Counted from the first letter of the stretch, positions 47,313-61,497 are shown. The stretch: 61,709 nt of DNA from Fibrobacteria bacterium (GCA_037447435.1 JBBIGR010000031.1:1-61709); one strand, 5' to 3'. The notes: generated by a model not told the origin, from the sequence alone. Translations and numbers: made by a program.

Positions 47313-47663
47313 TTACGGGGCCAAATGAGGCTGGTTTTGGATCAGATCTTCTTCGTTTTTATACATTTTAATAAGTTTATCGAAATCGATAACCGAAAGG
47401 ATGTCGATGATGTCCCGGTTGGCTTCGATTATGGCTAGGCTTCCGCCGACATCTTTAATTAGTTCTGAACAGGAAATAAGTACGGCGATTGATTTTGTGT
47501 AAAGGTATGAGTCCTGAGTAAACGCTATGGCAATGTGACAGATGTTTTGAGAAATTTGAGCTTCGATGACGGCTTTTAAATCGTACATGTCGGTGTTTAA
47601 GCCGATGTCCTCCTTCAGTCTGAGGACCTGGAAAATACCTTTTCGATATATTTCGATTTGCAT
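47313..47663 (-). CDS. STAS-domain (anti-sigma antagonist-like) protein
   Basis: 116 aa with STAS pattern LRLKEDIG...IAIAF...YLYTKSIAVLI...GGSLAII...IIDILSVIDFDKLIKMY. Confidence 0.75.
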   Translation of the reverse strand: MQIEIYRKGIFQVLRLKEDIGLNTDMYDLKAVIEAQISQNICHIAIAFTQDSYLYTKSIAVLISCSELIKDVGGSLAIIEANRDIIDILSVIDFDKLIKMYKNEEDLIQNQPHLAP

Positions 47664-47853: not shown

Positions 47854-48960
47854 ATGTTTATGAACCATGAGAATTTGATACGGGGTAATATTCTTATTAT
47901 CGATGACGAATATGCCATTTGCGCCGGCGTATCAGGATTATTGAAATTGAACGGATTCAGGACGGATTATGTTTGTTCGGGCGATGATGGACTGCAGTAC
48001 CTGGAGCAACATCCGGAAACCGATATCGTTCTTTTGGACATCAATCTTGGAATCGGTAAAAGCGGCATAGAGCTTTTGCCCATAATACGGGAAAGGTTTA
48101 AATACGCCCAGGTCATGATGTTTACTTCTCATGATACTCTCAGCACCGGCTTGGAATGCATGAAAAAAGGTGCTTGCGATTATTTGACTAAACCTTTCAA
48201 AGAGGCGGAATTTTTAAAGAAAGTTCCCGATGCTCTTGCAAAAAAACAATTAAGCAGGTTGAATGATTTATATCTGGGGATTTTGGTACACGATTTAAAA
48301 AACCCGCTTCAATGCATTCTCGGGGCTTGGGACATTATTAAAATGAGCCTCACGACGCCGCTCAACGAATCTCAAAAACGCATTATCAGTTCCGGCGATA
48401 CGGGTATATCACAAATAAGAATGATGATAGAAAACATCCTGTCGGTTTCGAGATTCGAGACCGGTAATTTTTATGTTTCAAACGAAGAATTTTGTTTGGT
48501 TGATGAAACGGAAACGGTTTTGTCTCCTTTGCGCGACCAACTACGGGCGACCGGGCGAACATTTTCCATTCATGTCGATACGAATGCTCCGAAAACCATC
48601 GTTGCCGACAGAGATTTGTTTACCCGAGTATTATTCAACATCGTGTCGAACGCGTTGCGTTTTACGCCGGACTCCGGAGGAGTCACCATTGAATTCAATG
48701 AAAAAGAGACTGGAATTTTGCATACCATCATTTGCAATACCGGTTCATTTGTAGAGGAACGGTTCCGAACCGAAATTTTCGATAAATTCGCCAGTGTGCA
48801 AAAAATCAGCCAATCGGGCGGAGTGAGGAATTTCGGACTTGGTTTGACATTTAGTAAAATGGCCGTCGAGGCCATGGGCGGTAGTATTTGGGTCGAATCC
48901 CAAAAGGAGCCGGCACAAACCACCTTTCATTTTACCGTGAAAAATTGTAAGGCCGCATAA
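47854..48960 (+). CDS. Hybrid response regulator-histidine kinase (REC-HisKA-HATPase)
   Basis: ILIIDDE, LLDINL, YLTKPF; LVHDLKNPL; NIVSNALRF, IFDKF, GLGLTFSK. Confidence 0.93.
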   Translation: MFMNHENLIRGNILIIDDEYAICAGVSGLLKLNGFRTDYVCSGDDGLQYLEQHPETDIVLLDINLGIGKSGIELLPIIRERFKYAQVMMFTSHDTLSTGLECMKKGACDYLTKPFKEAEFLKKVPDALAKKQLSRLNDLYLGILVHDLKNPLQCILGAWDIIKMSLTTPLNESQKRIISSGDTGISQIRMMIENILSVSRFETGNFYVSNEEFCLVDETETVLSPLRDQLRATGRTFSIHVDTNAPKTIVADRDLFTRVLFNIVSNALRFTPDSGGVTIEFNEKETGILHTIICNTGSFVEERFRTEIFDKFASVQKISQSGGVRNFGLGLTFSKMAVEAMGGSIWVESQKEPAQTTFHFTVKNCKAA

Positions 48961-48962
48961 TC

Positions 48963-50018
48963 ATGGCAATGCAAAAAGTCGAAACTGAGGCTGTTTTAAA
49001 GGGCAAAGTAAGAAAAGAATTTGCCTGGAAAATAATTTCCGATTATTCCCGTTACGAGTTCTTCATGGAAAATGTTGATAAAGTCAATATTCTCGAGCGG
49101 ACTCCGACGCAGGGTAAATCGGAATGGTTCGTCACGATTGAAGAAGCTCCGCTCAAATGGGTCGAACGGGATTACTATGATGTTGATAATTTTGAACTCC
49201 GTTTCGAATCGATAGACGGCGATTTCGAAAGCATTCGGGGACGTTGGAAAGTGGAAAATTATCAAAATGAAGGCATTAAAATATTTTTCATTATAGAATA
49301 CGATCTTGGGATTCCGGTCATCGAGGAAGTGCTTGGACATATTCTTAAGGAAAAGATGAAGACCAACATCGATTCCATGATCCATGCAATTAAAGAAGAA
49401 TTAACAAAATCGCAAGACGACGACCGGAAATACCCGCGCTACAATATAGGAAAATACAATAACATTTCGTTGAACGAAAAATTTGTCAGAGCTTTCATTG
49501 TCAATGTGTCGCAAAAAGGAATGATGTTTTATTATGACGGTGAATTTGACGCGCAAAATATTCTTGTAAAAATCCAAGACCTTGGCATTGAAGCAGAAGC
49601 GTTGTTCAATGATCTTAAACATAAAAACATCCGGATTATTTTCAAACAGATCATTTCCCAAACCCAATTGGAATCCTTGGTTGGTTTTCTCGGATCCAAT
49701 TCCATTCGCGCTTATGAACGTGAAAATATCGACAAATATATGCCGATACTGTTTAACGATTCTGCATATTCGGTTTTTGTCATCAATATTTCGCCAAAAG
49801 GAATATTGTTCAAATACGACGGTACTTTCGATTGGCGCGACGAAATGTTCGAACTTGCGGGAGTAAAGCTTTTAGCCAGGGAAGTGCACCATGAAATCGC
49901 TTCGAAAACGATCAGAGTCGCTTTTACAGATACGTTGAACGATATCTTTTTTGCGGATTTGCTTAAAAAAATTAAGGAATTTGATCTCGGTCAACAGCAG
50001 ATGGAACTTGGATATTAA
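48963..50018 (+). CDS. SRPBCC/START (polyketide cyclase-like) domain fused to two PilZ domains
   Basis: N-terminal WKIISDYSRYEFFMENV...LRFESIDGDF..IRGRW...YDLGIP; PilZ1 RKYPR...NVSQKG; PilZ2 RAYER...NISPKG. Confidence 0.8.
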   Translation: MAMQKVETEAVLKGKVRKEFAWKIISDYSRYEFFMENVDKVNILERTPTQGKSEWFVTIEEAPLKWVERDYYDVDNFELRFESIDGDFESIRGRWKVENYQNEGIKIFFIIEYDLGIPVIEEVLGHILKEKMKTNIDSMIHAIKEELTKSQDDDRKYPRYNIGKYNNISLNEKFVRAFIVNVSQKGMMFYYDGEFDAQNILVKIQDLGIEAEALFNDLKHKNIRIIFKQIISQTQLESLVGFLGSNSIRAYERENIDKYMPILFNDSAYSVFVINISPKGILFKYDGTFDWRDEMFELAGVKLLAREVHHEIASKTIRVAFTDTLNDIFFADLLKKIKEFDLGQQQMELGY

Positions 50019-50020
50019 CA

Positions 50021-51154
50021 ATGGATAATGAATCTGAAAAACTAAAAAATACCAAAGTGGCCTTTGTTGCTCATCCGGCCGACATGGAAATGTATCGTTC
50101 ATATATTCGGTTTCTTAAGCCGGATAAAACCTATGATGATAAGCTGCTTTTAAAACTCTTTGAATGGTCGCCTTCCTATAAGGTTACCGAATGGACAAAT
50201 CTAACTTTTGATGGAAAATCGTTTTTTGACGCAATGTTCGTGATGGTGCCGTTTTTACCCGAAATGAAGGACATTCGTTTAAAAAAAATAGTTGAAAAAA
50301 TAGACCAGGCACTTGCAATCGCATCGGAACAGCAATGCAAAGTTGCCGCTCTCGGTGCATTTACATCGATTGTTTTGCAAGGTCAGGAAAAAAATTTTGC
50401 TCAAAAGCACAATATAAATTTAACTTCAGGGAATACGCTAACTGCTGCAACCGTTGTCCGCTCCATCGAACAAATCAGTGCGAAATTGGGTGTCGCGTTG
50501 CAAGATACAACGCTTGGCATCGTCGGTGCATCGGGCGATATTGGATCCGCGTGTGTCTCGTATTTTCAAAATAAAGTTAAAACAATGGTCCTGACCGCAC
50601 GAAGCGAATCATCATTGCAAACAATGGTTAAAAATCTTGATTCAAAACCCGAATGCACCCTGGAAATAACAACGGACAACAAAGCCGCAGTATCGAAATC
50701 CGATATCGTCATTTTTGTGACGAGTTCATATGTGCCGATGTTTACTCAAAACGATTTTAAACCCGGCACCATTGTTTGCGATGCTTCGGCGCCATTAAAT
50801 GTTACGATTTCCGACAAGCCGCGGAAGGATGTTTTTATTTATCACGGCGGCATTTTGTCCTTGCCTTTTTCCCTTGATCCTGGATTTGATATCGGCCTTG
50901 CATCACCGTATACTTTTTACGGTTGCCAAATTGAGGGAGCACTCATGGCTCTAGATTCCACTCTACCGTGTTCGTGGGGAAGAGGGAATATTACAAAGGA
51001 AAAATTGGGATCGTTTTTGCAGAAATTATACACCGTTCCCCGGTTGGATATTTCCTATTCGGTTGGAAAACATACTTATTCGGAAGAAGAACTCGAAAAT
51101 TACAAAAAAGAATTTTTACATAGCAAAAACGCATCATTTCGTCGATGTGCTTAA
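50021..51154 (+). CDS. Long-chain acyl-ACP reductase-like protein (aldehyde-forming, cyanobacterial AAR family)
   Basis: ALGAFTSIV, TSGNTLTA, GIVGASGDIGSA (Rossmann), FYGCQIE (catalytic Cys), SWGRGNIT parallel AAR motifs ALGGFTSII, TTGNTHTA, GATGDIGSA, FACFAE, SWGRNQIT. Confidence 0.85.
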   Translation: MDNESEKLKNTKVAFVAHPADMEMYRSYIRFLKPDKTYDDKLLLKLFEWSPSYKVTEWTNLTFDGKSFFDAMFVMVPFLPEMKDIRLKKIVEKIDQALAIASEQQCKVAALGAFTSIVLQGQEKNFAQKHNINLTSGNTLTAATVVRSIEQISAKLGVALQDTTLGIVGASGDIGSACVSYFQNKVKTMVLTARSESSLQTMVKNLDSKPECTLEITTDNKAAVSKSDIVIFVTSSYVPMFTQNDFKPGTIVCDASAPLNVTISDKPRKDVFIYHGGILSLPFSLDPGFDIGLASPYTFYGCQIEGALMALDSTLPCSWGRGNITKEKLGSFLQKLYTVPRLDISYSVGKHTYSEEELENYKKEFLHSKNASFRRCA

Positions 51155-51171
51155 AAGCCGGAATAAATCCT

Positions 51172-51411
51172 ATGGACAATGCAAAAAAAGATAAAATTTA
51201 CAGCATAATGCAGAGTGCGACCGGTATTAACGTGGAAACTTTGCAACGGGAAAAACCGTTGCGGGACCAAATTGATCTGGACTCAATGCAATTTTTGGCG
51301 GTTATTGCAAAACTTGAAAACGATTTGGGTATAGAATTGCCGCTTTCGGTTATGGAAGCCCAAACCATGTCGGAGTTTTTTACCGAACTTGACAGGGAAC
51401 TAGGAGAATAG
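51172..51411 (+). CDS. Acyl carrier protein
   Basis: Small acidic protein; LDSMQF phosphopantetheinylation Ser; LENDLGIEL. Confidence 0.88.
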   Translation: MDNAKKDKIYSIMQSATGINVETLQREKPLRDQIDLDSMQFLAVIAKLENDLGIELPLSVMEAQTMSEFFTELDRELGE

Positions 51412-51418
51412 TTGTGCG

Positions 51419-52780
51419 ATGCCGCTTTTGACCGATAATCTTGCGTTTGGTAAGATACATTTCCAAAATAAAACATATGTACCGCAAACAATACAGGCCC
51501 ACATCGAAGAGGTGAGCCTGTATTTAAAAAAAAGAACCATATCCAATTCCCCCTTTGTTTTTTTATTCGCTCCAAATCATGTAAAAACGGTTTATGCCGT
51601 TTTCGGAATCATAAAAGCAGGCAAAATATGCGTTCTTGTCGATCCTTTGCAGGGAAAAATCGAAGTAGAAGAAATGATGAAAACAACGCCGCCCGCAGCG
51701 ATTATTCGAATTAATAGAGAAACGGACGGTTTTGATTACAACGAAGAATTTGAATTCAAGCATTATATGCTTGGTGATGCAAAATTACAAGGGCTTGCCG
51801 ATGTTTGCATGATATTGTACGGTGCGGGTATGGACGGATTTCCTCAGGCCGCTATGTTGACCAATGAAAGTCTTATCGCAAATGCAAATGCGCTCAATTC
51901 CTGCAATGAATTAAATCGAGAATCGACGTCATGTTCAATAATAGCCATTCATCACCTTTTCGCATTTCAGACGGGGGTACTTGTTCCTTTCCTTAAACAA
52001 AGCAACACATTAATTGTCGACACCAATGATTTGAGATCCATGCGCTCAATCGCAACGCAATTGCAGGATTTTAATGTCGACCATATATACTCCGTACCAA
52101 TAGTGTATTATTTCCTTAGAAAAATACCGGGCATTTCAGAATATTTTAAAACAGTCAATGCATTAGAGAGCGGAGGGTGCAAACTTTCACGCCAGATATT
52201 CGATTTATATAAAGCCGATTTTGGTATTGAAATTCATGAGGGCTACGGCCTCACCGAAGCCTCGCCGATGTGCACGTGGCACAGACCCCATGATCCTATT
52301 AAAATCGAATCTGTCGGCCGGTCTTTGCCCGGTTGTGAAATCAATATTGTGGATAGCGATGGAAAAATCGCCAAAATGGGGGATGTTGGAGAAGTTTGTG
52401 TCAGAGGGCCAAACGTTTTTAAGGGATATTTCGGAAACCCGAGTATGACGAATGATGTTTTTAAAAATGATTTTCTTTTTACCGGCGACCTTGGAAAACT
52501 TGATAATGACGGATATTTATATTTAAAAGGGATAAAAAAGAACATGGTAAACCTTGGCGGGAATAAAGTTTTTCCTGCCGAGACGGAGAAATTGATAAAG
52601 AAAAATAATAACGTTATGTCTTGCGATATAAAAGGGGTTGAAACCAATGGCATGGGGATAGTGGTTTCAGCGAAAATACATTTACGGAACAATACTGCAG
52701 AGTCGCAGATTGCTTTAAAAAAATGGTGCCGGAATACTATAACGTCATATAAAATTCCGACGGAATGGGTTTTTATTTAA
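51419..52780 (+). CDS. ANL-superfamily (acyl-CoA/acyl-ACP synthetase-like) enzyme, non-canonical
   Basis: EGYGLTEASP, SVGRSLPG, GEVCVRGPNVFKGY, FTGDLG and GGNKVFPAE retained; P-loop degenerate (YGAGMDGFPQA); C-terminus ends at YKIPTEWVFI. Confidence 0.85.
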   Translation: MPLLTDNLAFGKIHFQNKTYVPQTIQAHIEEVSLYLKKRTISNSPFVFLFAPNHVKTVYAVFGIIKAGKICVLVDPLQGKIEVEEMMKTTPPAAIIRINRETDGFDYNEEFEFKHYMLGDAKLQGLADVCMILYGAGMDGFPQAAMLTNESLIANANALNSCNELNRESTSCSIIAIHHLFAFQTGVLVPFLKQSNTLIVDTNDLRSMRSIATQLQDFNVDHIYSVPIVYYFLRKIPGISEYFKTVNALESGGCKLSRQIFDLYKADFGIEIHEGYGLTEASPMCTWHRPHDPIKIESVGRSLPGCEINIVDSDGKIAKMGDVGEVCVRGPNVFKGYFGNPSMTNDVFKNDFLFTGDLGKLDNDGYLYLKGIKKNMVNLGGNKVFPAETEKLIKKNNNVMSCDIKGVETNGMGIVVSAKIHLRNNTAESQIALKKWCRNTITSYKIPTEWVFI

Positions 52781-52827
52781 AATCCGGAATCCTATCGAAT
52801 TGATTCAAGAATCATAAGGAGAAAAGC

Positions 52828-54603
52828 ATGAAGATGACTGTTGCAAAAGCTATTGTCAAATGTTTGGAAATAGAAGATATCAAAATAGCCTTCGGTATTA
52901 TCGGTTCACATTATCTTTCTTTATTTAAGGAAATAAAAGATTCAAATATAAAATACATTTCCGTAAAACATGAGGCCGCAGCGGGATATATGGCATTATC
53001 GTATACGCGAACCGCACAACAGCCTTCTTTAATATTGGGAACAGCAGGTCCCGGAGCTGCAAACCTTGTTGGCAGTGTTGCTGAAATGTTTAAAGCGGGG
53101 ATACCCGGGATCATTATCACGCCCACCGTCGCTTCTACCTTATTTGGAAAAAAAGCTTTACAGGAAGATTCCGGTTTGGGTACATCGTATTCCATTACTT
53201 CTCTAATGGGAAATATCACTAAACAATCGATTCTTGCATTTCGTCACGATCAAATACCGCAATACTTAAGAGACTTGATACGTTGTTCCCTTACTGCTCC
53301 TTTTGGGCCGGTACATTTGTGCGTTCCCTGCGATTTTTTTGATATGGAATTGGAATTTGACGAAATAGAACCTTTCAATTATCGTACAATTGAAGATGAG
53401 AGAATGGAATCTAAAAAATTATGTTTGGTTGCCGAAGAGTTACGGAATGCTCAAAACCCTCTCTTGCTAATAGGCAATAGATGTGTTTTTCCAGATTGTT
53501 CTGTCCAGATACAGGCAATTTGCGATCATTGGAACATTCCATTTATCCTTACTCATGCTTCAAAGGGTTTACTAAATGAGCGTCAGGACTTATTTGGCGG
53601 TGTTTTGGATTATTTCGGGCATAAATCCGCCGAACGATATGTGAAACAATGCGATTGTATTTTTGCGATTGGCTTGGATTTTTCTGAAGCGGAAACTCTT
53701 GCTTACGATCCTGAATTATTTAAAAACTCAAAACTATTTATTTTGGACTCCGATAGTTCTCAATTTACATCATCATATAAATTTGCGCAGAGTATTTCAG
53801 GGAGCATCAAGCATTCACTGGCGTTTCTTTTGGAACATATGCATACGATTGTCAAAAAGGACCTCATGAACCTTGCAGACTATCGGGATAAAATGCGGAG
53901 CATGAATGAGTACCAATTTTCTGAAATGGCCACAGAATCGGACCCGATGAAGATTGAGTATATTATCAGCAATCTTTCCCGCATTATGCCGGAAAAAAGC
54001 GCGGTTTATTCAGATATGGGCGCAAGCACATTTTCATTTATTCGTCACTATGCGACTAATAAGCAGGGTTTTCATGCTTTAAGTGGAAATTATTCTATGG
54101 GACAAGCTGTCGCCGGATGTATAGGGGGAAAGCTTTCAAATCCGGATAAGTTCGTTGTCGCAATTTCCGGTGACGGTGCATTCCTCATGCACAGCAACGA
54201 AATATTAACTGCGGTCCAATATGGTCTCGGGATCACCTGGATTGTGTTTGTTGAAGACCTCTATAATATGATTCAAATCAATCAATGTCTTGCCTATGGC
54301 GGAGGGCTCGAATTTTGTACGCGGATTAATAATCCGAATTTTCAAAAACTCGCCGAAGCATACGGAATACACTACTATGAAATTAAAACCAAGGAGGATA
54401 TAGAATCATCGATTAAAAAAGCGTATGAAAAAAATCGGCAAAACGAATCTGTTCTTATTACGGTCACCTATGCCTTCGAGCAACATCTTCCTATAAAACC
54501 TCAATTGGTTCGTTCAATGAAAAACATGGGACAAACCAAAGACATCCAATCTAATCCGTATTTGATGAAAGCTTTTTCCAAGGCTTTAAAAGAAAAAGGC
54601 TAA
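52828..54603 (+). CDS. Thiamine diphosphate-dependent enzyme (acetolactate synthase-like fold, putative carboligase)
   Basis: KHEAAAGYMA (catalytic Glu), GPGAAN, ALQE, GPVHLCVP, SMGQAV, GDGAFLM ThDP motif. Confidence 0.9.
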   Translation: MKMTVAKAIVKCLEIEDIKIAFGIIGSHYLSLFKEIKDSNIKYISVKHEAAAGYMALSYTRTAQQPSLILGTAGPGAANLVGSVAEMFKAGIPGIIITPTVASTLFGKKALQEDSGLGTSYSITSLMGNITKQSILAFRHDQIPQYLRDLIRCSLTAPFGPVHLCVPCDFFDMELEFDEIEPFNYRTIEDERMESKKLCLVAEELRNAQNPLLLIGNRCVFPDCSVQIQAICDHWNIPFILTHASKGLLNERQDLFGGVLDYFGHKSAERYVKQCDCIFAIGLDFSEAETLAYDPELFKNSKLFILDSDSSQFTSSYKFAQSISGSIKHSLAFLLEHMHTIVKKDLMNLADYRDKMRSMNEYQFSEMATESDPMKIEYIISNLSRIMPEKSAVYSDMGASTFSFIRHYATNKQGFHALSGNYSMGQAVAGCIGGKLSNPDKFVVAISGDGAFLMHSNEILTAVQYGLGITWIVFVEDLYNMIQINQCLAYGGGLEFCTRINNPNFQKLAEAYGIHYYEIKTKEDIESSIKKAYEKNRQNESVLITVTYAFEQHLPIKPQLVRSMKNMGQTKDIQSNPYLMKAFSKALKEKG

Positions 54604-54638
54604 GGAATGATCGGATTAATTCCCCCGGCAGAATATAA

Positions 54639-54668
54639 TTGACATTTTGACCTTATTAATCGTACAAT
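54639..54668 (+). promoter_or_regulatory. Putative internal sigma70 promoter for the large kinase
   Basis: TTGACA-N18-TACAAT about 60 nt upstream of ATG 54728. Confidence 0.55.
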
Positions 54669-54727
54669 AAGCTTTCCAGAGATATTTCCAAACGATTTGG
54701 GAACAACATTCTGTCCATGGAACGGCT

Positions 54728-57700
54728 ATGCCACCTACCGGAACATTTTCCCGAGAATTCGATATTGTCAATATTGTGTCCAGTAGCCAGGACAGTGAAG
54801 TGGTATTGACGCGTAAAAAAGAAACCGGCGAACAGTTCATTCTTAAGTCACTCAATGAAACGAATGGAAATAGTAATGATTTGGTAAGTAGAAAACTCCG
54901 GTTTAAGCGCGAAGTCGACATCGTTTCTTCCTTTGAACATCCCCGCATTGCAAAACCCGCCGAAACTTTTACGGACGACAAAAATATTTCTATACTATAC
55001 CCCTATAAAAACGGAAAAACCCTTGCTAAAATCATCGAGGAAACCTCGATGTTTTCAATAGACGATACTCTTTTGTATATATATCAAATTCTTGATGCGC
55101 TTGAATATATCCATTCAAGAAGTATCATCCATTGCGATGTGAATCCGTATAATATTTATGTCGATGAAAATCGAGGCGTAGAACTTTTGGATTTTGGCCT
55201 TTCCATGACGGAGGAGGAGGCGCAAAAACTTCCTGAAGGCCAGATCATTGGCACAATCCCTTTCCTCTCTCCTGAACAAATGGGATTTACGGATTTTAAA
55301 ATAGATTTCCGATCCGATTTGTATTGCGCCGGAATTATTCTGTATCAACTTTTAACGGGCCGACAACCATTCCCGATAAATAATAATTCATTAGCGGAAT
55401 TACTTGATTCTACGCTTAAAACCGAAGTTAAACCCATTAAAAACATTCCTGCCTATTTGAATAAAATAGTTTTGAAATCTTTAAAGGCAACCCAAGAGGA
55501 CAGATATCAAACTGCATCCGGGTTTAAATACGACATCGAAATGGCATCCAAAGCCATTAAGGAGGAAGGGAGCAAGACCTTTATTCCGGGAGAAAAAGAC
55601 GCCATTTTAGCGGTAAATAAAGCTCGGATCTTTGTTGCTCGGGAAGATGAAATAAATTCTCTGAAACAGGGCCTCAAACAACTTAATCTTGGGATCGGGT
55701 CGTCGTTTTTATTGTATGGAAAGTCGGGGGTAGGGAAAACGGAAATCGTTAGACAATTCAGACATTCCGTCGATGAATCGAAGACGTTGTTTTTGTCGTC
55801 CAAGTGCAATAGGTTTAGTGTTAGTCAACCTTTTGCGACAATCCGGCATACCGTTCTTGATTTCTTTGCGAAGGCAGTTGGAAAAAATGAGGATAAACGT
55901 TATGAATTAAAATATGTTCTTAGCAATAAGTTATCCGAATTTTCCGGATTGCTTTGTTTATTAATACCGGAATTAAAACCCTATTTTGAAAAAATTGGTG
56001 GACTAAATAATGTTGAAAAAGAACGGGAAACCGATCGGATCGTTTACGTCCTCTCAAAATTGTTGCTGACACTGACTGAAACGCAGAGCACTATCGTGTT
56101 CCTGGATGATGTACAATGGATCGATCAAATTTCCTATGAAATCTTAAAGAAAACAATGGTTCAAAATCCCGTCTGCTGCATCATCATGAACTATAGAATT
56201 TCCGGGTCTCAGACCGAACCGCATTTCTTTAACGACGATATTAAAAGGCTGCCAATACATAAAACTATTCCAATAAAGCCGTTTTCTTTATTGGAAGCCC
56301 GTGACCTTATTTCGTTTCATGTGGGACGGATTCAGGATTCCGAAAAACTTGCCGAAGTTTTATTTGCAAAATCGGAAGGTAATCCTTTCACCTTAGTTGA
56401 AGCGACTCGCTACCTTGTCAATACCGGAATCCTTTTGCAAGGACATCAAGGATGGTATTTCCATAGTGCTGAAATAAATAAATTGCCCGATAAATTCGAT
56501 ACGGTGTCACTCGTTATTTCAAAACTCGGAGACCTTACCGACCAGGAAACCAAGGTGTTGTGGCTGGCCTCGTTAATCCAAGGCAAATTCAATACAACGC
56601 TCTTAATGAAAATTATTAACTGTGAAAAGATATTTATCGATAAGACAATCCAGAAACTGGATTCCCTCGGTTTTATTGTACGGAAATCAAACAATGATTG
56701 TCATTTCATTCATGACAAAGTCCAGGAATCGGTAAGTTCAAGAATTCCAAAAGATATTTCCTTTGATTATAATGAAAGGATCGCTTTAGAATTTGAGATA
56801 CATGCAAAAGACAATCCCGACCTGATTTACAGTGCAGCAGAATATTATTTGAAAAGCAAAAACATCTCAAAAGCGGTTGATATATCATATAAGGCTGCGA
56901 AGCATGCCACCGAAAAAATCGCCTTTGATGTTGCGACGCGGTACTTTCGGAATGTGACGCTCATGGCAGGACAATGCGAGCAACTGAAATTACCGATCAT
57001 CGTAGATCTTACTACGGCTCAAATGGATTTTGCAAATGTATTGATGCTTACCGGCCGAAACCAACAGGCCCTGAACATTTATCACAAATTGATTCAGAAC
57101 GAGAATGGTCTTAAAACATATCAGTTGCTTGAAATAAAATTCCGGATCGGTTCTATATACCACACAATGGGAAAATTTGATGATTCCATCAAATATTTAG
57201 TCGATGCATTGGATTCACTCGGCATCAGGCTTCCAAGTAATAAAGCATTGGTCGTAGTGTACCTTTTGTCTGAAATAGTGGTTCAAGCGCTGCATTCGTT
57301 CGGCCTTAAATATTTAATGCCGAAAAAAAAGAGCAAATACATAAAGCTGTCCATTAGAATTCTGAATAAATTGTCATATTCATTTTATTTTAAAGATCTT
57401 GTTTTTACGATGCTTACTCATTTTCGCGCAATGAATATGTCCGATTCCCTTGAAGATTGTTTTGAAAAAGCGGAAACATATGCATATCATGTCGTTCCTG
57501 CTTTTTTAATGCTTCTTAAAAAGAGATCCCTTAAATATTTCAAAAAGTCGTTATTTATTGCAAATAGGATATCGCATGTAGACATTCAGGCCATCGCAAG
57601 AAATTTTGGCGGGATTTCTCAGTATTATAATGCTAAATGGAAAAACGCGGAAAGCCTGTTAAAGGAAAGTATTGACAATTACAAATCGATAGGAAATTCC

Positions 57701-59869
57701 GGGGGAATGATAACGTCTCTTGAACACCTGTCGTATATTGCAATGGCACGCGGCGAAATAAATAAGTGCAAAGAAATAATGACGGCGGAACTGGAATTGA
57801 GCCAAGATTATAATGATTTACGGGGTGAAATACTTGCCAAAAGGATGATTCTATTATCGAATTTGCTGCTTTCGATCGATCCGCCTGAATCGGTTCAGGA
57901 CTTAGTCAAAATACAGGATCATTTCCATGACGCATTAATGAAAACGGTAACAAATGTGTCTTTCGTTGCCTCGCATATTTGTCTGAACAATTTAAAGGAT
58001 GCGTATAGAATTGCAAAAGAGAGTATTTCTGTAATAAAAGACAAAAGTATCAATCAAGAATATATTGCCCCGATATATTCATTAATTTGCGATGTTTTGG
58101 TCTTGGAATATAGAGCAAGAAAAGGCGAAGATAAGAATAAGCAACTTACTATTTCCGACAAGCAAATTCTTTCGGAGTTATCTCAATATTCATTAATGGC
58201 TTTTTTGCGGGGACTGATTTATCCTGCGCATTTGGGTTCTGCCTATCGTAGTTTGGCATGGAAATTTGCTTTAAAAGGTCATGTAAAAATAGCGCAATAT
58301 TTTTATAAAAAAGCAATTAAAAAACACCATGCATTAGGCATGAAATATGAAGAGGCGAAATCAATAAGGGATTACGGCTTTTTTCTTGATGATCAAGGTT
58401 TCCCCGGCGATGCACGGGATCAGTATAATTCGGCCTATGCGATGTTTCATTTTTGCGGTGCAACCCTTGAAACCGACAGGTTGAGGGATTTTGTCGATAT
58501 AATCGTGGTTGAAAATAAAAAGAACGCCAAAACAAATCCGGTAAAAGTCGAGACAACAACCGCCGATATCAGTCAAATCAGGCTTGATACGTTGTACGAA
58601 TTAAGCAATTCGATGCGGGACATAGACGATATCGATATCCTTGTAAAACAAATTCTTGCCGCGATGATAAAGGCGACGGGCGCGCAATACGGTGTTTTGT
58701 ATTTAAGCGGCGAAGAACAAAACTCCTTTTCGATGAAGACCCTTGCCATGAATTTTGAAGGCAAGCTGCTCACGTCGGATGAAGTGTATTGTTCCCATAA
58801 AATCATTCAGGAATCGCTCGAAAAGAAACAGATCATCCTTGTGAAGACTCCGCTTCACGAAGGATTGGAAAATGATGAAACCGAAAGAGTCCGGTCGGTT
58901 TTATGTGTTCCGTTGTTCCACGGTGAAACCTGTCAGGGATATATTTATTTGGCCAATAATATGGTATCCAGTCTTTTTTCGGAAAGTGCCAAGAAGGCTG
59001 CGCAAATTCTTTCTCGACAAGCTGATTCCTTACTGCAAAACGCCAGTTTGATGGAAGAATTCAAACGCCTGAACAGAAATTTGCAGAAAAAAGTCCGGGA
59101 GCAAACGACCGACATCCAGGACAAGAACAAACAGCTCGAAGAATATAATGTCAAGGTTGTGGAATCGGAAAGAATGAAAGGTCTTTTAACCGGTACGTTG
59201 GTGCACGATATTAAAAATTTCATTGCCGGCATTGAGGGAAATGCAACGTTGCTTGGCAGGTTTTATGAAAATGATCCTAAAATTAAAAAAACGGTACGTA
59301 TTGTTTCCGATTGCTGCAGCGGCATCGTAAGCCTGGCGTCCAATTTGCTCGACATCGGCAAAATGGAGGAGGGACGGCTTATTTTAAAAAAAGAGAATAT
59401 CGGTATTAAAGAGATGTTTTCGATAGGGGAGCAATTAAAACAGAATGCAATGTTCGAGGAAAAAAGCATTACGGTTACAATCGTGGATAAAACCGACATG
59501 AGGTTTTCCATTCATGCAGATTATTACCTTGTCGATCGGGTTTTGCAGAACCTGTTTTCAAATGCGATTAAATATACGCCTGTTAACGGCAGAGTTGAAT
59601 TGACTTTCGAAGAAAACGATAATGAATTCATTGTTTGTTGTTACAATACGGGTTCGCCTATACCCCTCGACGACCAGCCTACTTTGTTCGACAAATATGC
59701 CAGAGTTGAAAACAAATCGTCTCAATATTCAAAAGGATTGGGCCTGTTTTTTGGAAAGATGGTTATGAATGCGCATGATGGACGTATTTGGGTTGTATCT
59801 GATACTACAGGCAACTATTTCAAACTTGCTTTTAAAAAACTTCCTAATATCCCCTCATCCGTCGCTTAA
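54728..59869 (+). CDS. Multidomain Ser/Thr kinase - AAA/STAND ATPase - TPR-like - GAF - histidine kinase sensor
   Basis: HCDVNPYN, DFG, SPEQ, RSDLY; Walker A GKSGVGKT, Walker B FLDDVQW, EGNPF, FIHDKVQE; GAF RSVLCVPL; LVHDIKN, NLFSNAIKY, GLGL. Confidence 0.92.
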   Translation: MPPTGTFSREFDIVNIVSSSQDSEVVLTRKKETGEQFILKSLNETNGNSNDLVSRKLRFKREVDIVSSFEHPRIAKPAETFTDDKNISILYPYKNGKTLAKIIEETSMFSIDDTLLYIYQILDALEYIHSRSIIHCDVNPYNIYVDENRGVELLDFGLSMTEEEAQKLPEGQIIGTIPFLSPEQMGFTDFKIDFRSDLYCAGIILYQLLTGRQPFPINNNSLAELLDSTLKTEVKPIKNIPAYLNKIVLKSLKATQEDRYQTASGFKYDIEMASKAIKEEGSKTFIPGEKDAILAVNKARIFVAREDEINSLKQGLKQLNLGIGSSFLLYGKSGVGKTEIVRQFRHSVDESKTLFLSSKCNRFSVSQPFATIRHTVLDFFAKAVGKNEDKRYELKYVLSNKLSEFSGLLCLLIPELKPYFEKIGGLNNVEKERETDRIVYVLSKLLLTLTETQSTIVFLDDVQWIDQISYEILKKTMVQNPVCCIIMNYRISGSQTEPHFFNDDIKRLPIHKTIPIKPFSLLEARDLISFHVGRIQDSEKLAEVLFAKSEGNPFTLVEATRYLVNTGILLQGHQGWYFHSAEINKLPDKFDTVSLVISKLGDLTDQETKVLWLASLIQGKFNTTLLMKIINCEKIFIDKTIQKLDSLGFIVRKSNNDCHFIHDKVQESVSSRIPKDISFDYNERIALEFEIHAKDNPDLIYSAAEYYLKSKNISKAVDISYKAAKHATEKIAFDVATRYFRNVTLMAGQCEQLKLPIIVDLTTAQMDFANVLMLTGRNQQALNIYHKLIQNENGLKTYQLLEIKFRIGSIYHTMGKFDDSIKYLVDALDSLGIRLPSNKALVVVYLLSEIVVQALHSFGLKYLMPKKKSKYIKLSIRILNKLSYSFYFKDLVFTMLTHFRAMNMSDSLEDCFEKAETYAYHVVPAFLMLLKKRSLKYFKKSLFIANRISHVDIQAIARNFGGISQYYNAKWKNAESLLKESIDNYKSIGNSGGMITSLEHLSYIAMARGEINKCKEIMTAELELSQDYNDLRGEILAKRMILLSNLLLSIDPPESVQDLVKIQDHFHDALMKTVTNVSFVASHICLNNLKDAYRIAKESISVIKDKSINQEYIAPIYSLICDVLVLEYRARKGEDKNKQLTISDKQILSELSQYSLMAFLRGLIYPAHLGSAYRSLAWKFALKGHVKIAQYFYKKAIKKHHALGMKYEEAKSIRDYGFFLDDQGFPGDARDQYNSAYAMFHFCGATLETDRLRDFVDIIVVENKKNAKTNPVKVETTTADISQIRLDTLYELSNSMRDIDDIDILVKQILAAMIKATGAQYGVLYLSGEEQNSFSMKTLAMNFEGKLLTSDEVYCSHKIIQESLEKKQIILVKTPLHEGLENDETERVRSVLCVPLFHGETCQGYIYLANNMVSSLFSESAKKAAQILSRQADSLLQNASLMEEFKRLNRNLQKKVREQTTDIQDKNKQLEEYNVKVVESERMKGLLTGTLVHDIKNFIAGIEGNATLLGRFYENDPKIKKTVRIVSDCCSGIVSLASNLLDIGKMEEGRLILKKENIGIKEMFSIGEQLKQNAMFEEKSITVTIVDKTDMRFSIHADYYLVDRVLQNLFSNAIKYTPVNGRVELTFEENDNEFIVCCYNTGSPIPLDDQPTLFDKYARVENKSSQYSKGLGLFFGKMVMNAHDGRIWVVSDTTGNYFKLAFKKLPNIPSSVA

Positions 59870-59911: not shown

Positions 59912-60253
59912 ATGCCCGTTGTACTTAAAACAGCGTTATTATTGGTAGTTTCAAATGTTTTCATGACCTTTGCCTGGTATGCTCATTTGCGAAATCTTTT
60001 AGATCGGAAATGGTATATCGCCGCAGTCATAAGTTGGTCAATCGCGTTTTTTGAATATATGGTTCAAGTGCCGGCAAATCGAATAGGGTTTACCGCTTTA
60101 AATCTTGGCCAACTTAAAATTCTTCAAGAAGTTGTTACGCTTGCAGTATTTGTCCCATTTGCAATTCTCTATATGAAATCTCCGATACGTTTGAATTTCC
60201 TCTGGGCAGGCTTGTGTCTCATTGGTGCCGTCTATTTTATTTTTAAAGCCTGA
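59912..60253 (+). CDS. DMT-superfamily small membrane protein (DUF486-like)
   Basis: SNVFMTFAWYAHL, SWSIAFFEYMVQVPANRIG, QLKILQEV. Confidence 0.88.
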   Translation: MPVVLKTALLLVVSNVFMTFAWYAHLRNLLDRKWYIAAVISWSIAFFEYMVQVPANRIGFTALNLGQLKILQEVVTLAVFVPFAILYMKSPIRLNFLWAGLCLIGAVYFIFKA

Positions 60254-60352: not shown

Positions 60353-61000
60353 ATGGAGCTATATCAAGACGAACTGTATGAAAGCCTGACTGAAAAACAG
60401 CGAAAGGTTTTGCTTTTTATTGAAGAACAGTATGTTGAAAATGGATGTGTTCCAACGTATGAGCAAATCGCATTAAAATTCAAATGGAATTCTGTCAATT
60501 CGGTAACAAATCATATTGCAGCGTTACGCGAAAAGGGCTTTATTTCGCTTAATAAAGGCCGTAATAGGCAGATGTCGCCGCTTCGGGTAGAACGTAAACG
60601 TTTTGATCAAAGCACTAAAATTCCGCTTTTGGGTTCTATTGCAGCTGGAATGCCTATCGAAGCAATTGAAAATGTAGATACATGGCTTGAAATGGATGCG
60701 TTAGGGGTTTCCAATGAAAAGGGTGATAAATTTGCTTTGCGCGTAAAAGGTAATTCCATGATAAATAGAGGAATACGAACGAATGATGTTGTTATAATTC
60801 AGAAACAGTCCTTTGTGACGCAAAAGGATGTTGCAGCAGTAAGGGTCGGAAACGATGTGACGCTTAAATATGTTAAGCAGGAAGCAACATGTATTAAACT
60901 GATTCCCGATAATGATTTTATGGCACCTATAATTGTCGATCCTCGTGAAGATTTTGCCGTTATGGGCAAAGTTATTAAACTTTTCAGAGATGAAGTTTAA
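60353..61000 (+). CDS. lexA: SOS repressor LexA
   Basis: LTEKQRKVL..PTYEQIA winged HTH; IAAGMP Ala-Gly cleavage site; GNSM catalytic Ser; VTLK catalytic Lys. Confidence 0.93.
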   Translation: MELYQDELYESLTEKQRKVLLFIEEQYVENGCVPTYEQIALKFKWNSVNSVTNHIAALREKGFISLNKGRNRQMSPLRVERKRFDQSTKIPLLGSIAAGMPIEAIENVDTWLEMDALGVSNEKGDKFALRVKGNSMINRGIRTNDVVIIQKQSFVTQKDVAAVRVGNDVTLKYVKQEATCIKLIPDNDFMAPIIVDPREDFAVMGKVIKLFRDEV

Positions 61001-61029: not shown

Positions 61030-61497
61030 ATGGCAATTGTAAATTTTGCTGCACAAAATACCGAATCAACGGTGATTTTACGAAAAAAAGCATCTGCAAG
61101 CGAAGGAGTCATTTGGGCGAACTTATCACGAGGAGTTTGCGGTGTTTGGTTTCGAAGACGTTACCCTATTGGGAATCATATCGTTGATTTTTATTGCCGG
61201 AAACTCAAGCTAATCATTGAGATCAGTAAAACAGGTGAACCTAAGGAACGGGATTTGTATTTTAGGGCCTCTGGCTATACCGTACTTCGGTTTTCAGACA
61301 CCGACATTAGCAATCGGTTACCGCACGTTATTTCTTCCATTCATTCTGCTATCCGGTTTACAAAAATGCATTTACGTTTTGCCGCAATAATTGAAAAAAT
61401 AGTTTTCTTTCCTCAAATAGTTTTGTCCAAAAAAATAGGAAAAAAAGAAATACGGACTGCCTATGCCGATTGCTACAGGCTATCAACTGCTCATTAA
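61030..61497 (+). CDS. DUF559 (Vsr-like endonuclease fold) protein, apparently degenerate
   Basis: SEGVIW, FRRRYPIGNHIVDFYC..KLIIEI, RDLYFRASGYTVLRFS. Confidence 0.7.
   Translation: MAIVNFAAQNTESTVILRKKASASEGVIWANLSRGVCGVWFRRRYPIGNHIVDFYCRKLKLIIEISKTGEPKERDLYFRASGYTVLRFSDTDISNRLPHVISSIHSAIRFTKMHLRFAAIIEKIVFFPQIVLSKKIGKKEIRTAYADCYRLSTAH

Follow-up and report, generated by a model that had tools for sequence, protein, structure and literature searches.

Does a run of seven co-oriented genes that places a reductase, an acyl carrier protein (ACP), an ANL-fold protein and a ThDP enzyme between two kinases encode a lipid signal together with its receiver? We analyzed these genes in a stretch of 61,709 nucleotides (the window) from a Fibrobacteria bacterium whose genome is 99.6% complete. 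At roughly even odds (a probability of about 0.5), we consider the cassette to be a signal synthase combined with its sensor, the signal being a fatty aldehyde that is here likely extended to an α-hydroxyketone, and we infer that this product is sensed by the kinases of the cassette. The locus comprises:

47313–47663, minus strand: STAS-domain gene (Pfam STAS), divergent from the REC-His kinase gene, a conserved neighbor
47854–48960, plus strand: REC-HisKA-HATPase hybrid kinase, cytoplasmic, 368 amino acids (Pfam)
48963–50018, plus strand: START/SRPBCC domain fused to two PilZ repeats, 351 amino acids (Pfam)
50021–51154, plus strand: acyl-thioester reductase of the AAR/PigE-N/TamH type, 377 amino acids (PDB ID 6jzu match, motifs)
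51145–51411 (probable start 51172), plus strand: ACP with a phosphopantetheine-site serine (Pfam PP-binding)
51419–52780, plus strand: divergent ANL-fold protein (AMP-binding), predicted acyl-ACP loader, 453 amino acids
52828–54603, plus strand: ThDP enzyme of a cassette-specific family, 591 amino acids, nearest solved structure BbmA
54639–54668, plus strand: sigma-70-like promoter site upstream of the giant kinase gene (11/12 matches)
54728–59869, plus strand: Pkinase-AAA-TPR-GAF-HisKA-HATPase giant kinase, cytoplasmic, 1713 amino acids (Pfam)
59912–60253, plus strand: DMT_6 (DUF486) small membrane protein (Pfam)

All seven open reading frames described in an earlier sequence-only reading were found on the plus strand, and Pfam confirmed their domains. 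They were described as mostly tightly spaced, and the gaps from the REC-kinase through DMT_6 are 2, 2, an overlap or 17, 7, 47, 124, and 42 bases (the ACP probably starts at 51172, because its homologues align from Met10). A correction is that the giant kinase gene has a separate promoter-like site; 9 of 13 regions aligned ahead of its orthologues contain a TTGAC box. The STAS gene adjoins the REC-His kinase also in G001, G003, G004, G005, G007, and G058. A DMT_6 gene is found 3′ of the giant kinase in G002, G003, and G005; it is kept in the window's own genus only, and we found no dedicated exporter conserved with the cassette.

The seven genes form a cassette that is conserved in two orders of uncultured Fibrobacterota. 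The complete set occurs in order in 9 of the 31 genomes examined. Its core consists of the START(-PilZ) and reductase genes, which are adjacent in 26 of 28 genomes that have the reductase. The giant kinase shares a contig with the reductase in 17 of these 28 (most misses fall at contig ends; it is not adjacent in G028 and G029), and the ThDP gene is present in 11. In the second order (G145), the REC-kinase, START-PilZ, reductase, and giant kinase genes are found together again, and the acyl source there is a PKS. Since the arrangement recurs in relatives, it is more than chance, and the expected co-occurrence with the kinases in other genomes is borne out by this gene order.

The reductase is a single-copy, stand-alone protein that is homologous to SeAAR (PDB ID 6jzu, E = 3.6e-22) over 316 residues. 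Cys302 aligns with the catalytic Cys294 of SeAAR, in keeping with the AAR-type assignment made earlier, and is invariant in 49/49 aligned homologues, as are Gly169, Gly172, and Gly175 of a GxxGxxG motif (residues 169–175). Judging from the characterized homologues SeAAR, TamH, and PigE, the enzyme would act on acyl-ACP and free the acyl chain from the ACP as an aldehyde. PKSs that replace ACP and ANL in relatives end in an ACP and lack a thioesterase, as is expected if the reductase off-loads the chain. The cassette shares with the AAR-ADO system the homologous reductase, its catalytic Cys and its nucleotide-binding motif, but its reductase is accompanied by an ACP of its own, a START partner and kinases, and scores far below the cut-off for TIGR04058 (cyanobacterial AAR; 108.9 versus 449.7 bits). 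A search for ADO (PF11266), which gave positives in control genomes, did not find it in the whole source genome, as had been supposed, and an alkane pathway was rejected on this ground.

Related enzyme pairs have been described in two pigment pathways: the ANL-ACP protein TamA feeds the AAR-like reductase TamH in tambjamine biosynthesis (PMC9594044), and the AAR-like reductase PigE works with the ThDP enzyme PigD in prodigiosin biosynthesis (PMC8341465). The cassette also pairs an ANL protein and ACP with such a reductase, and the reductase with a ThDP enzyme; its ThDP enzyme, however, is a 591-residue BbmA-like protein, and its ANL protein lacks the canonical P-loop. No class III aminotransferase, fused or adjacent, was found in the cassette, and we therefore rejected an amine or pyrrole pathway of the TamA/TamH or PigD/PigE type. 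The two precedents nevertheless lend weight to the main rival explanation, in which the locus is a biosynthetic cluster for an aldehyde- or acyloin-derived metabolite or a minor envelope lipid. START would then carry the reactive aldehyde, PilZ would couple synthesis to c-di-GMP, and the kinases would regulate without sensing the product. We regard this as quite possible, while leaning against it for reasons given below with the START-PilZ protein.

In the signal-synthase reading, the ANL-fold protein would load a fatty acyl group onto the ACP. Its AlphaFold model (pLDDT 93) has a full ANL fold, with TM-scores of up to 0.86 to ANL structures. Using a search pattern that we take to be that of the A3 P-loop of ANL enzymes, we detected the canonical Ser/Thr/Gly-rich loop in 0 of 45 family members, compared with 47 of 79 control ligases; position 138 or 139 is acidic in 42 of the 45. 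The A8 Arg (1/45 versus 68/79 control ligases) and the hinge Asp (2/45 versus 58/79) are also rare, and A5 Glu (45/45), A7 Asp (45/45), and A10 Lys (38/45) are retained. Because its triphosphate-binding motifs are missing, the family probably transfers acyl groups instead of adenylating, so that the label "adenylating" in the sequence-only reading is probably wrong; acyl groups would be supplied from acyl-CoA or acyl-AMP, probably without ATP use. The window protein is the only one of the 45 without Lys143 and may be inactive. A precedent for an ANL protein without adenylation is PtmA2, reported to perform the second half-reaction only (PMC6594144), from which the cassette family differs by keeping the A10 Lys, by its tie to an ACP and by having no evident partner adenylase. 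The source genome contains two PPTases.

The lost triphosphate-binding motifs would also fit an intracellular lipid-status circuit, in which the ANL protein would act as a pseudo-enzyme binding acyl-CoA or acyl-AMP and the aldehyde would be an internal second messenger, with no cell-cell exchange. The cytoplasmic location of both kinases points the same way, as do 11 of 79 metagenome loci, where degenerate related ANLs neighbor genes for enoyl-CoA hydratase, thiolase, or PilS/PilR-like proteins. Yet the ANL protein keeps its ACP neighbor, and either a canonical FAAL or a PKS without a thioesterase can take the place of the pair. Both findings speak for a role in acyl supply, the one we infer for ANL and ACP from these module swaps. 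Tailoring genes moreover vary inside genera (ThDP is found in G008 and not in G016, and G003 lacks it), a pattern not easily reconciled with an internal messenger, and we think such a circuit rather improbable. For an exchanged signal, optional tailoring (ThDP, B12 radical SAM, SDR, reducing PKS) would make the molecule lineage-specific.

The best PDB match of the ThDP enzyme is BbmA (E = 2.1e-56 with the protein and 1.8e-91 with a profile), which groups with CybE and CsmA as α-hydroxy-β-keto acid synthases. CybE makes acyloins from 2-oxo acids, and CsmA is described as its homologue (PMC12395478). The cassette family differs from these enzymes in forming its own clade, and no furanolide synthase gene was found among the window open reading frames of the cassette. 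The hallmarks of ThDP enzymes with the decarboxylase fold are there: the catalytic Glu49 and a GDG motif are present in 42/42 members, and the metal-ligand position 476 is Asp in 24, Glu in 14, and Asn in 4; the clade has a G-x-x-G-S-H loop, and Asp/Glu replaces the second Asn of the ThDP motif. All 42 members separate from IlvB with a support of 1.0. The window enzyme scores 268.8 bits against TIGR00118 (IlvB), below the cut-off of 538.35, no ilvN lies beside its gene, and two true ilvB-ilvN pairs are located elsewhere in the genome (contigs C14 and C9). We thus rejected a role as IlvB in primary metabolism; the enzyme is nearest to acyloin-type carboligases, which supports the earlier reading.

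These data also weigh on the explanation that an IlvB copy, a housekeeping ligase and unrelated kinases are neighbors by chance. Automatic annotation does label the ThDP proteins acetolactate synthase, and the source genome has 79 kinase-like open reading frames. Against this stand the separate ilvB-ilvN pairs and the low IlvB score of the cassette copy, the finding that all 8 strong ThDP matches in 61 genomes adjoin the reductase, and a gene order kept across families; chance is largely refuted and very improbable. If the cassette makes a signal, the ThDP enzyme would here likely extend the aldehyde to an α-hydroxyketone, perhaps by ligating it with a 2-oxo acid to yield an acyloin. The acyloin product proposed earlier accordingly survives in part: the enzyme is nearest to acyloin-type carboligases, but its step is optional in the reductase genomes, and the core product would therefore be the aldehyde.

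The SRPBCC-PilZ-PilZ architecture was recovered by Pfam for the SRPBCC domain and the first PilZ (24.8 bits, cut-off 22.5), but the second PilZ is not scored and was recognized by motifs, in 9 of 16 aligned members. The motifs of PilZ c-di-GMP receptors, RxxxR and [DN]xSxxG, are present, and at least 90% of 16 members keep Arg155, Arg159, Ser183, and Gly186 of the first PilZ. The only PDB match of the START-PilZ profile is TTHA0849 (2d4r), and a cavity of ∼18 cubic angstroms is reported for the closest solved START protein (PMC13525633), a point against the signal-synthase reading. From its sequence, START-PilZ is a predicted receptor for lipid and c-di-GMP; more tentatively, its ligands are likely the product and c-di-GMP, and it would tune the relay of the two cytoplasmic kinases. 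A 2026 review of bacterial START proteins mentions neither PilZ nor c-di-GMP nor Fibrobacter.

In the biosynthetic-cluster explanation, START would serve the reductase that it adjoins in most genomes, and mycobacterial START proteins are indeed reported to bind acyl-ACP (PMC13525633). In G058, START without PilZ lies in a START-reductase-ThDP-ACP-FAAL locus amid methyltransferase and radical SAM genes, with no adjoining kinase, which looks like a plain biosynthetic cluster. On the other hand, the cassette has no conserved glycosyltransferase, aminotransferase, acyltransferase, or transcription factor, START-PilZ remains beside the REC-kinase where the reductase is absent, and the acyl-supply module is also paired with CqsA-like synthases. 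The cassette is also lost in congeners: G056 has an empty site where G057 carries the synthase genes.

The REC-kinase is present in 24 and a giant-kinase orthologue in 25 of 61 genomes. The phospho-Asp, H-box, and N and G boxes of the former are kept in 16/16 aligned orthologues, and the His-kinase boxes of the latter are conserved. The Ser/Thr catalytic-loop Lys of the giant kinase is replaced by Asn or His in 21/21 sequences and its Asp is lost in 4/21; the Ser/Thr domain in the window has Lys, Asp, and DFG. A hydropathy scan revealed no membrane segment in the REC-kinase and one marginal segment in the giant kinase. Both kinases are kept in seven genomes without the reductase; three of these also have START-PilZ, and most of its conserved residues are retained. 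These genomes fit receptor-only "listeners" but can equally mean that the kinases have a job of their own.

How does the cassette compare with known α-hydroxyketone signaling? In Cqs/Lqs systems, as described in PMC3376566, the product derives from an acyl-thioester and the synthase genes adjoin sensor kinases. The cassette resembles them in its synthase genes beside kinases, and in relatives that pair its ACP and ANL with a CqsA-like enzyme. It differs in using a reductase and an optional ThDP enzyme without a PLP synthase, in having cytoplasmic kinases where CqsS and LqsS are membrane-bound, and in adding START-PilZ. No CqsA/LqsA-type PLP synthase was found in the cassette, nor in the source genome at E = 1e-60 (best own match 31%). 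The analogy with Cqs, drawn from sequence alone, gained independent support because in G045 and G049, two genomes that have no reductase gene, the same ACP and ANL adjoin a CqsA-like PLP enzyme and two membrane sensor kinases. The ANLs of both genomes belong to the same 21-member clade (support 100/100). The top matches of the PLP enzyme, identified by sequence match, are NF005526 (α-hydroxyketone autoinducer synthase; 301 and 292 bits, below the family cut-off of 428) and the CqsA structure 2wk8 (E = 1.9e-52). BLASTP found no similarity of the giant kinase to the kinase of the CqsA-type locus, and we rejected a homology between them.

In G149 and G127 there is a third arrangement, in which an ACP-ANL-B12 radical SAM unit is accompanied by a multi-TM hybrid kinase. 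The N-termini of these kinases were matched by no CqsS model; we do not consider the kinases CqsS-like, and neither a CqsA-like gene nor the reductase was found in G149. At 20 of 24 loci the ANL has a kinase gene no more than four genes away, a count that includes related, non-independent genomes and three differing kinase types, versus 11% for an average open reading frame of the source genome; the other four loci are three contig ends and one clear miss.

On a broader and more doubtful reading, lipid-signal cassettes of the Fibrobacterota share one non-adenylating ANL-ACP loader and vary the chemistry joined to it: condensation by a CqsA-like PLP enzyme in some lineages, reduction of the acyl chain to a fatty aldehyde in others, and in the window ThDP chemistry leading to CAI-1-like α-hydroxyketones. 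In the reductase type, START-PilZ would read the product inside the cell and pass lipid and c-di-GMP inputs jointly to a two-kinase relay, and receptor-only relatives would eavesdrop. Bacterial signals would then include a fatty-aldehyde class, and α-hydroxyketone autoinducers could arise without PLP chemistry. Provided that the product is a signal, bacterial communication would gain a new chemical class (fatty aldehydes with their acyloins) and, in a polymer-degrading phylum, a new receptor type (cytoplasmic START-PilZ with a giant kinase), and the cassette would offer a testable route to CAI-1-type molecules by convergence. Under the biosynthetic rival, too, three enzymes are of interest: the ANL family that lacks the canonical P-loop, the ThDP family related to BbmA, and a reductase predicted to release the chain of a PKS.

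Genes for flagella or lifestyle might be the output of the relay. In six genomes fliD-fliS follow the REC-kinase immediately downstream, which upholds part of the flagellar link suggested earlier, but FliA was not found in the cassette carriers G002, G004, and G005 (94–96% complete), and a strict flagellar role was rejected.

Searches of open-licence literature, with queries worded without the order's name, returned no description of this gene set. A contig scan of genomes gave one locus, the same as in G002, and a metagenome scan one family locus among 80, the rest being other ligases. Plasmids contained distant aminotransferase fusions only, and the ESM Atlas generic AMP-binding and SRPBCC clusters only. 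A START-only search, restricted by protein length, returned Fibrobacterota-type matches.

All seven open reading frames described in the sequence-only reading, and the DMT gene after them, were recovered by ORF calling and Pfam searches. The cassette (47854-59869, forward strand) encodes a REC-HisKA-HATPase hybrid kinase (REC-kinase), a START-PilZ protein, an AAR-type reductase, an ACP, a divergent AMP-binding-fold protein (ANL), a ThDP enzyme and a giant Ser/Thr kinase-AAA-TPR-GAF-His kinase. Gaps among genes 1-6 do not exceed 47 bases; the 124-base gap 5' of the giant kinase holds a sigma-70-like site (11 of 12 matches) and a TTGAC box recurs 5' of its orthologue in 9 of 13 aligned regions, so this gene is probably also transcribed from a promoter of its own. 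On the 5' side of the cassette lie flhA, flhF, flhG and fliA (the last two read from sequence), a gene encoding an HDOD protein and a divergently transcribed STAS gene. Two genes found 3' of the DMT gene are not conserved alongside the cassette:

60353-61000, LexA-family repressor (second copy on contig C45 of the same genome)
61030-61497, DUF559 protein

Within the order, 21 of 61 genomes contain a strong match to the reductase (E < 1e-55); at E 1e-20 it is found in 27 of 251 sampled genomes of the phylum, two of them in another order. Our tblastn tally of gene order covers 36 loci in 31 genomes (28 with a strong reductase match, three with ANL only). The full seven-gene order is kept in nine genomes (G000, the window's own, G002, G005, G008, G033, G051, G120, G140 and G151), three of which have a B12 radical SAM gene inserted; the G120 ACP, under the tally threshold, was present at separate inspection. 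START adjoins the reductase in 26/28 reductase genomes (exceptions G057 and G127). The giant kinase shares a contig with the reductase in 17/28. In G007 and G024 it neighbours ANL or PKS on another contig, and in G028, G029 and G058 it is not adjacent; in the remainder contig ends make adjacency unscorable. These genomes are kin, and the counts therefore show inheritance, not independent events; within that scope the proposed co-conservation with the kinases stands, and we regard chance neighbourhood as very improbable. The cassette is real and conserved, may be of the synthase-plus-sensor kind, and is uncharacterised: open-licence literature, searched without the order's name, yielded no description of the gene set. 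In G004 (L019, contig C27), ANL, START-PilZ and the giant kinase carry many frameshifts and stops, reflecting decay or assembly error.

Reductase residues 16-331 align to Synechococcus AAR, with Cys302 on Cys294, and also match the PigE model; the score is far under the AAR family cut-off. Cys302 and GxxGxxG do not vary among 49 homologues. No aldehyde-deformylating oxygenase was found in the window's genome, in agreement with the earlier assignment of an AAR-type enzyme lacking this partner. Because the AAR-like domains of PigE (accessible text of PMC8341465) and TamH (accessible text of PMC9594044) make aldehydes from acyl thioesters, we strongly infer that the cassette enzyme would reduce acyl-ACP to aldehyde. 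According to the same TamH text, acyl-CoA is not accepted and the acyl donor is the ANL-ACP fusion TamA. The cassette resembles TamA/TamH and PigD/PigE in chemistry but is without an aminotransferase. TamH-like fusions do occur elsewhere, as ANL-aminotransferase-reductase followed by a DUF3419 gene (G050, L046:1051-5208) and as aminotransferase-reductase (G060, L047:7947-10844). A more distant AAR-like reductase (L036, G053:C13) clusters with an ACP, a flavodoxin-like reductase, radical SAM enzymes, an ABC exporter and two nitrogenase component-1-like genes.

The ANL family is found in 22/251 phylum genomes, all in the window's order. The canonical P-loop pattern occurs in 0/45 members and the A8 arginine in 1/45, compared with 47/79 and 68/79 control ligases; 11 of the 79 controls likewise lack this arginine. 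An acidic residue stands at position 138 or 139 in 42/45; A5 Glu and A7 Asp (45/45) and A10 Lys (38/45) are kept, the predicted fold is intact (pLDDT 93), and Lys143 is missing from the window protein only. The motifs missing here normally contact the triphosphate of ATP, and we therefore predict that this protein, previously taken for an adenylating enzyme, transfers an acyl group from an already activated donor. PtmA2 is an ANL enzyme performing the second half-reaction alone (accessible text of PMC6594144). Acyl supply varies: reducing type I PKSs replace ACP+ANL in G035, G145 and G183, where the PKS gene immediately follows that of the reductase, another adjoins the giant kinase in G024, and FAAL plus ACP are substituted in G058; the three complete PKSs end in an ACP and have no thioesterase. 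Other degenerate ANLs without the A8 arginine and with altered P-loops occur on metagenome contigs (L049, L050, L052, L054, L059, L060, L068, L086, L089, L104 and L107) near enoyl-CoA hydratase, thiolase or PilS/PilR-like two-component genes, possibly a wider set of non-adenylating ANLs.

The ThDP enzyme does not group with IlvB: it scores 268.8 on TIGR00118 (cut-off 538.35), no ilvN lies beside it, and its 42 relatives group in a single clade (support 1.0) in which Glu49, Gln112, GDG and His28 are invariant. Two true ilvB-ilvN pairs lie elsewhere in the genome. The closest solved structure is BbmA, with AHAS behind; CsmA-type enzymes, homologues of CybE, yield acyloin-type alpha-hydroxy-beta-keto acids (accessible text of PMC12395478). 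The likeliest reaction would join the aldehyde and a 2-oxo acid into an alpha-hydroxyketone; alternatively, by analogy with PigD, a Stetter addition may precede reduction. All eight strong ThDP matches among the 61 genomes lie beside the reductase. The acyloin proposed earlier is likely in the window lineage but is not the core product, the ThDP gene being present in just 11/28 reductase genomes.

We favor, at about even odds, a synthase-plus-sensor system whose core product would be a fatty aldehyde, tailored differently by lineage and probably extended to an alpha-hydroxyketone in that of the window, and read by START-PilZ and a two-kinase relay. The kinases are single orthologues (REC-kinase in 24/61 genomes, giant kinase in 25/61, both in 21). 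Seven genomes with both, candidate receptor-only genomes, have no strong reductase match (G043, G044, G050, G053, G055, G056 and G060); in G044, G050 and G056 START-PilZ still adjoins the REC-kinase and keeps most conserved residues. In G057 reductase-ACP-SDR-ANL-radical SAM is flanked by a metallophosphatase gene and by the giant kinase, a site that is empty in its congener G056. This persistence of kinases where the synthase is gone speaks for the strongest rival, in which the genes form a regulated biosynthetic cluster and the kinases do not detect what it makes, as do the tiny cavity of the closest solved START protein (accessible text of PMC13525633) and the G058 locus (L035, contig C20), a stand-alone START-reductase-ThDP-ACP-FAAL set surrounded by methyltransferase and radical SAM genes with no kinase adjacent. 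We consider this rival possible, at perhaps one chance in three, and an internal lipid-status circuit rather unlikely. A hydropathy scan revealed no clear membrane segments in either cassette kinase. The REC-kinase lies near fliA in G000, G003 and G007 and directly 5' of fliD-fliS in G043, G044, G053, G055, G058 and G060, but searches for FliA found none in G002, G004 or G005; the link to flagellar genes is partial.

The cassette is like Cqs/Lqs in layout, with synthase genes beside sensor kinases, but has neither PLP synthase nor membrane sensor and falls outside that class. In G045 and G049, ACP+ANL occur without reductase, accompanied by a PLP enzyme and two membrane kinases. These PLP enzymes score 301 and 292 bits on NF005526 (under its cut-off of 428), lower on BioF (237 and 234), match CqsA (2wk8) with E 1.9e-52 and are by sequence closest to alpha-hydroxyketone autoinducer synthases. 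G018 has the same CqsA-like synthase with FAAL and a related kinase. CqsA-like genes occur in 13/251 phylum genomes, and receiver, cyclase-like or kinase genes adjoin them in 5/6 further loci examined. Across contexts, kinase genes lie within four genes of ANL in 20/24 loci, versus 11% of ORFs in G000. All 21 ANLs in the tree form one clade whose base is unresolved, and we therefore claim no order of events. A separate CqsA-like system of Fibrobacterota (L037, L038, L128, L129, L173-L178) combines a PLP synthase with receiver and cyclase-like proteins and membrane kinases; L037 and L128 also encode a PilZ-FeeM (N-acyl amino acid synthase) fusion. In G149 and G127, ANL and a B12 radical SAM gene lie beside a multi-TM hybrid kinase, and directly 5' of the G149 ACP-ANL pair a 647-aa ORF (L134:11072-13015) with no Pfam or NCBIfam match is a candidate for a third chemistry.
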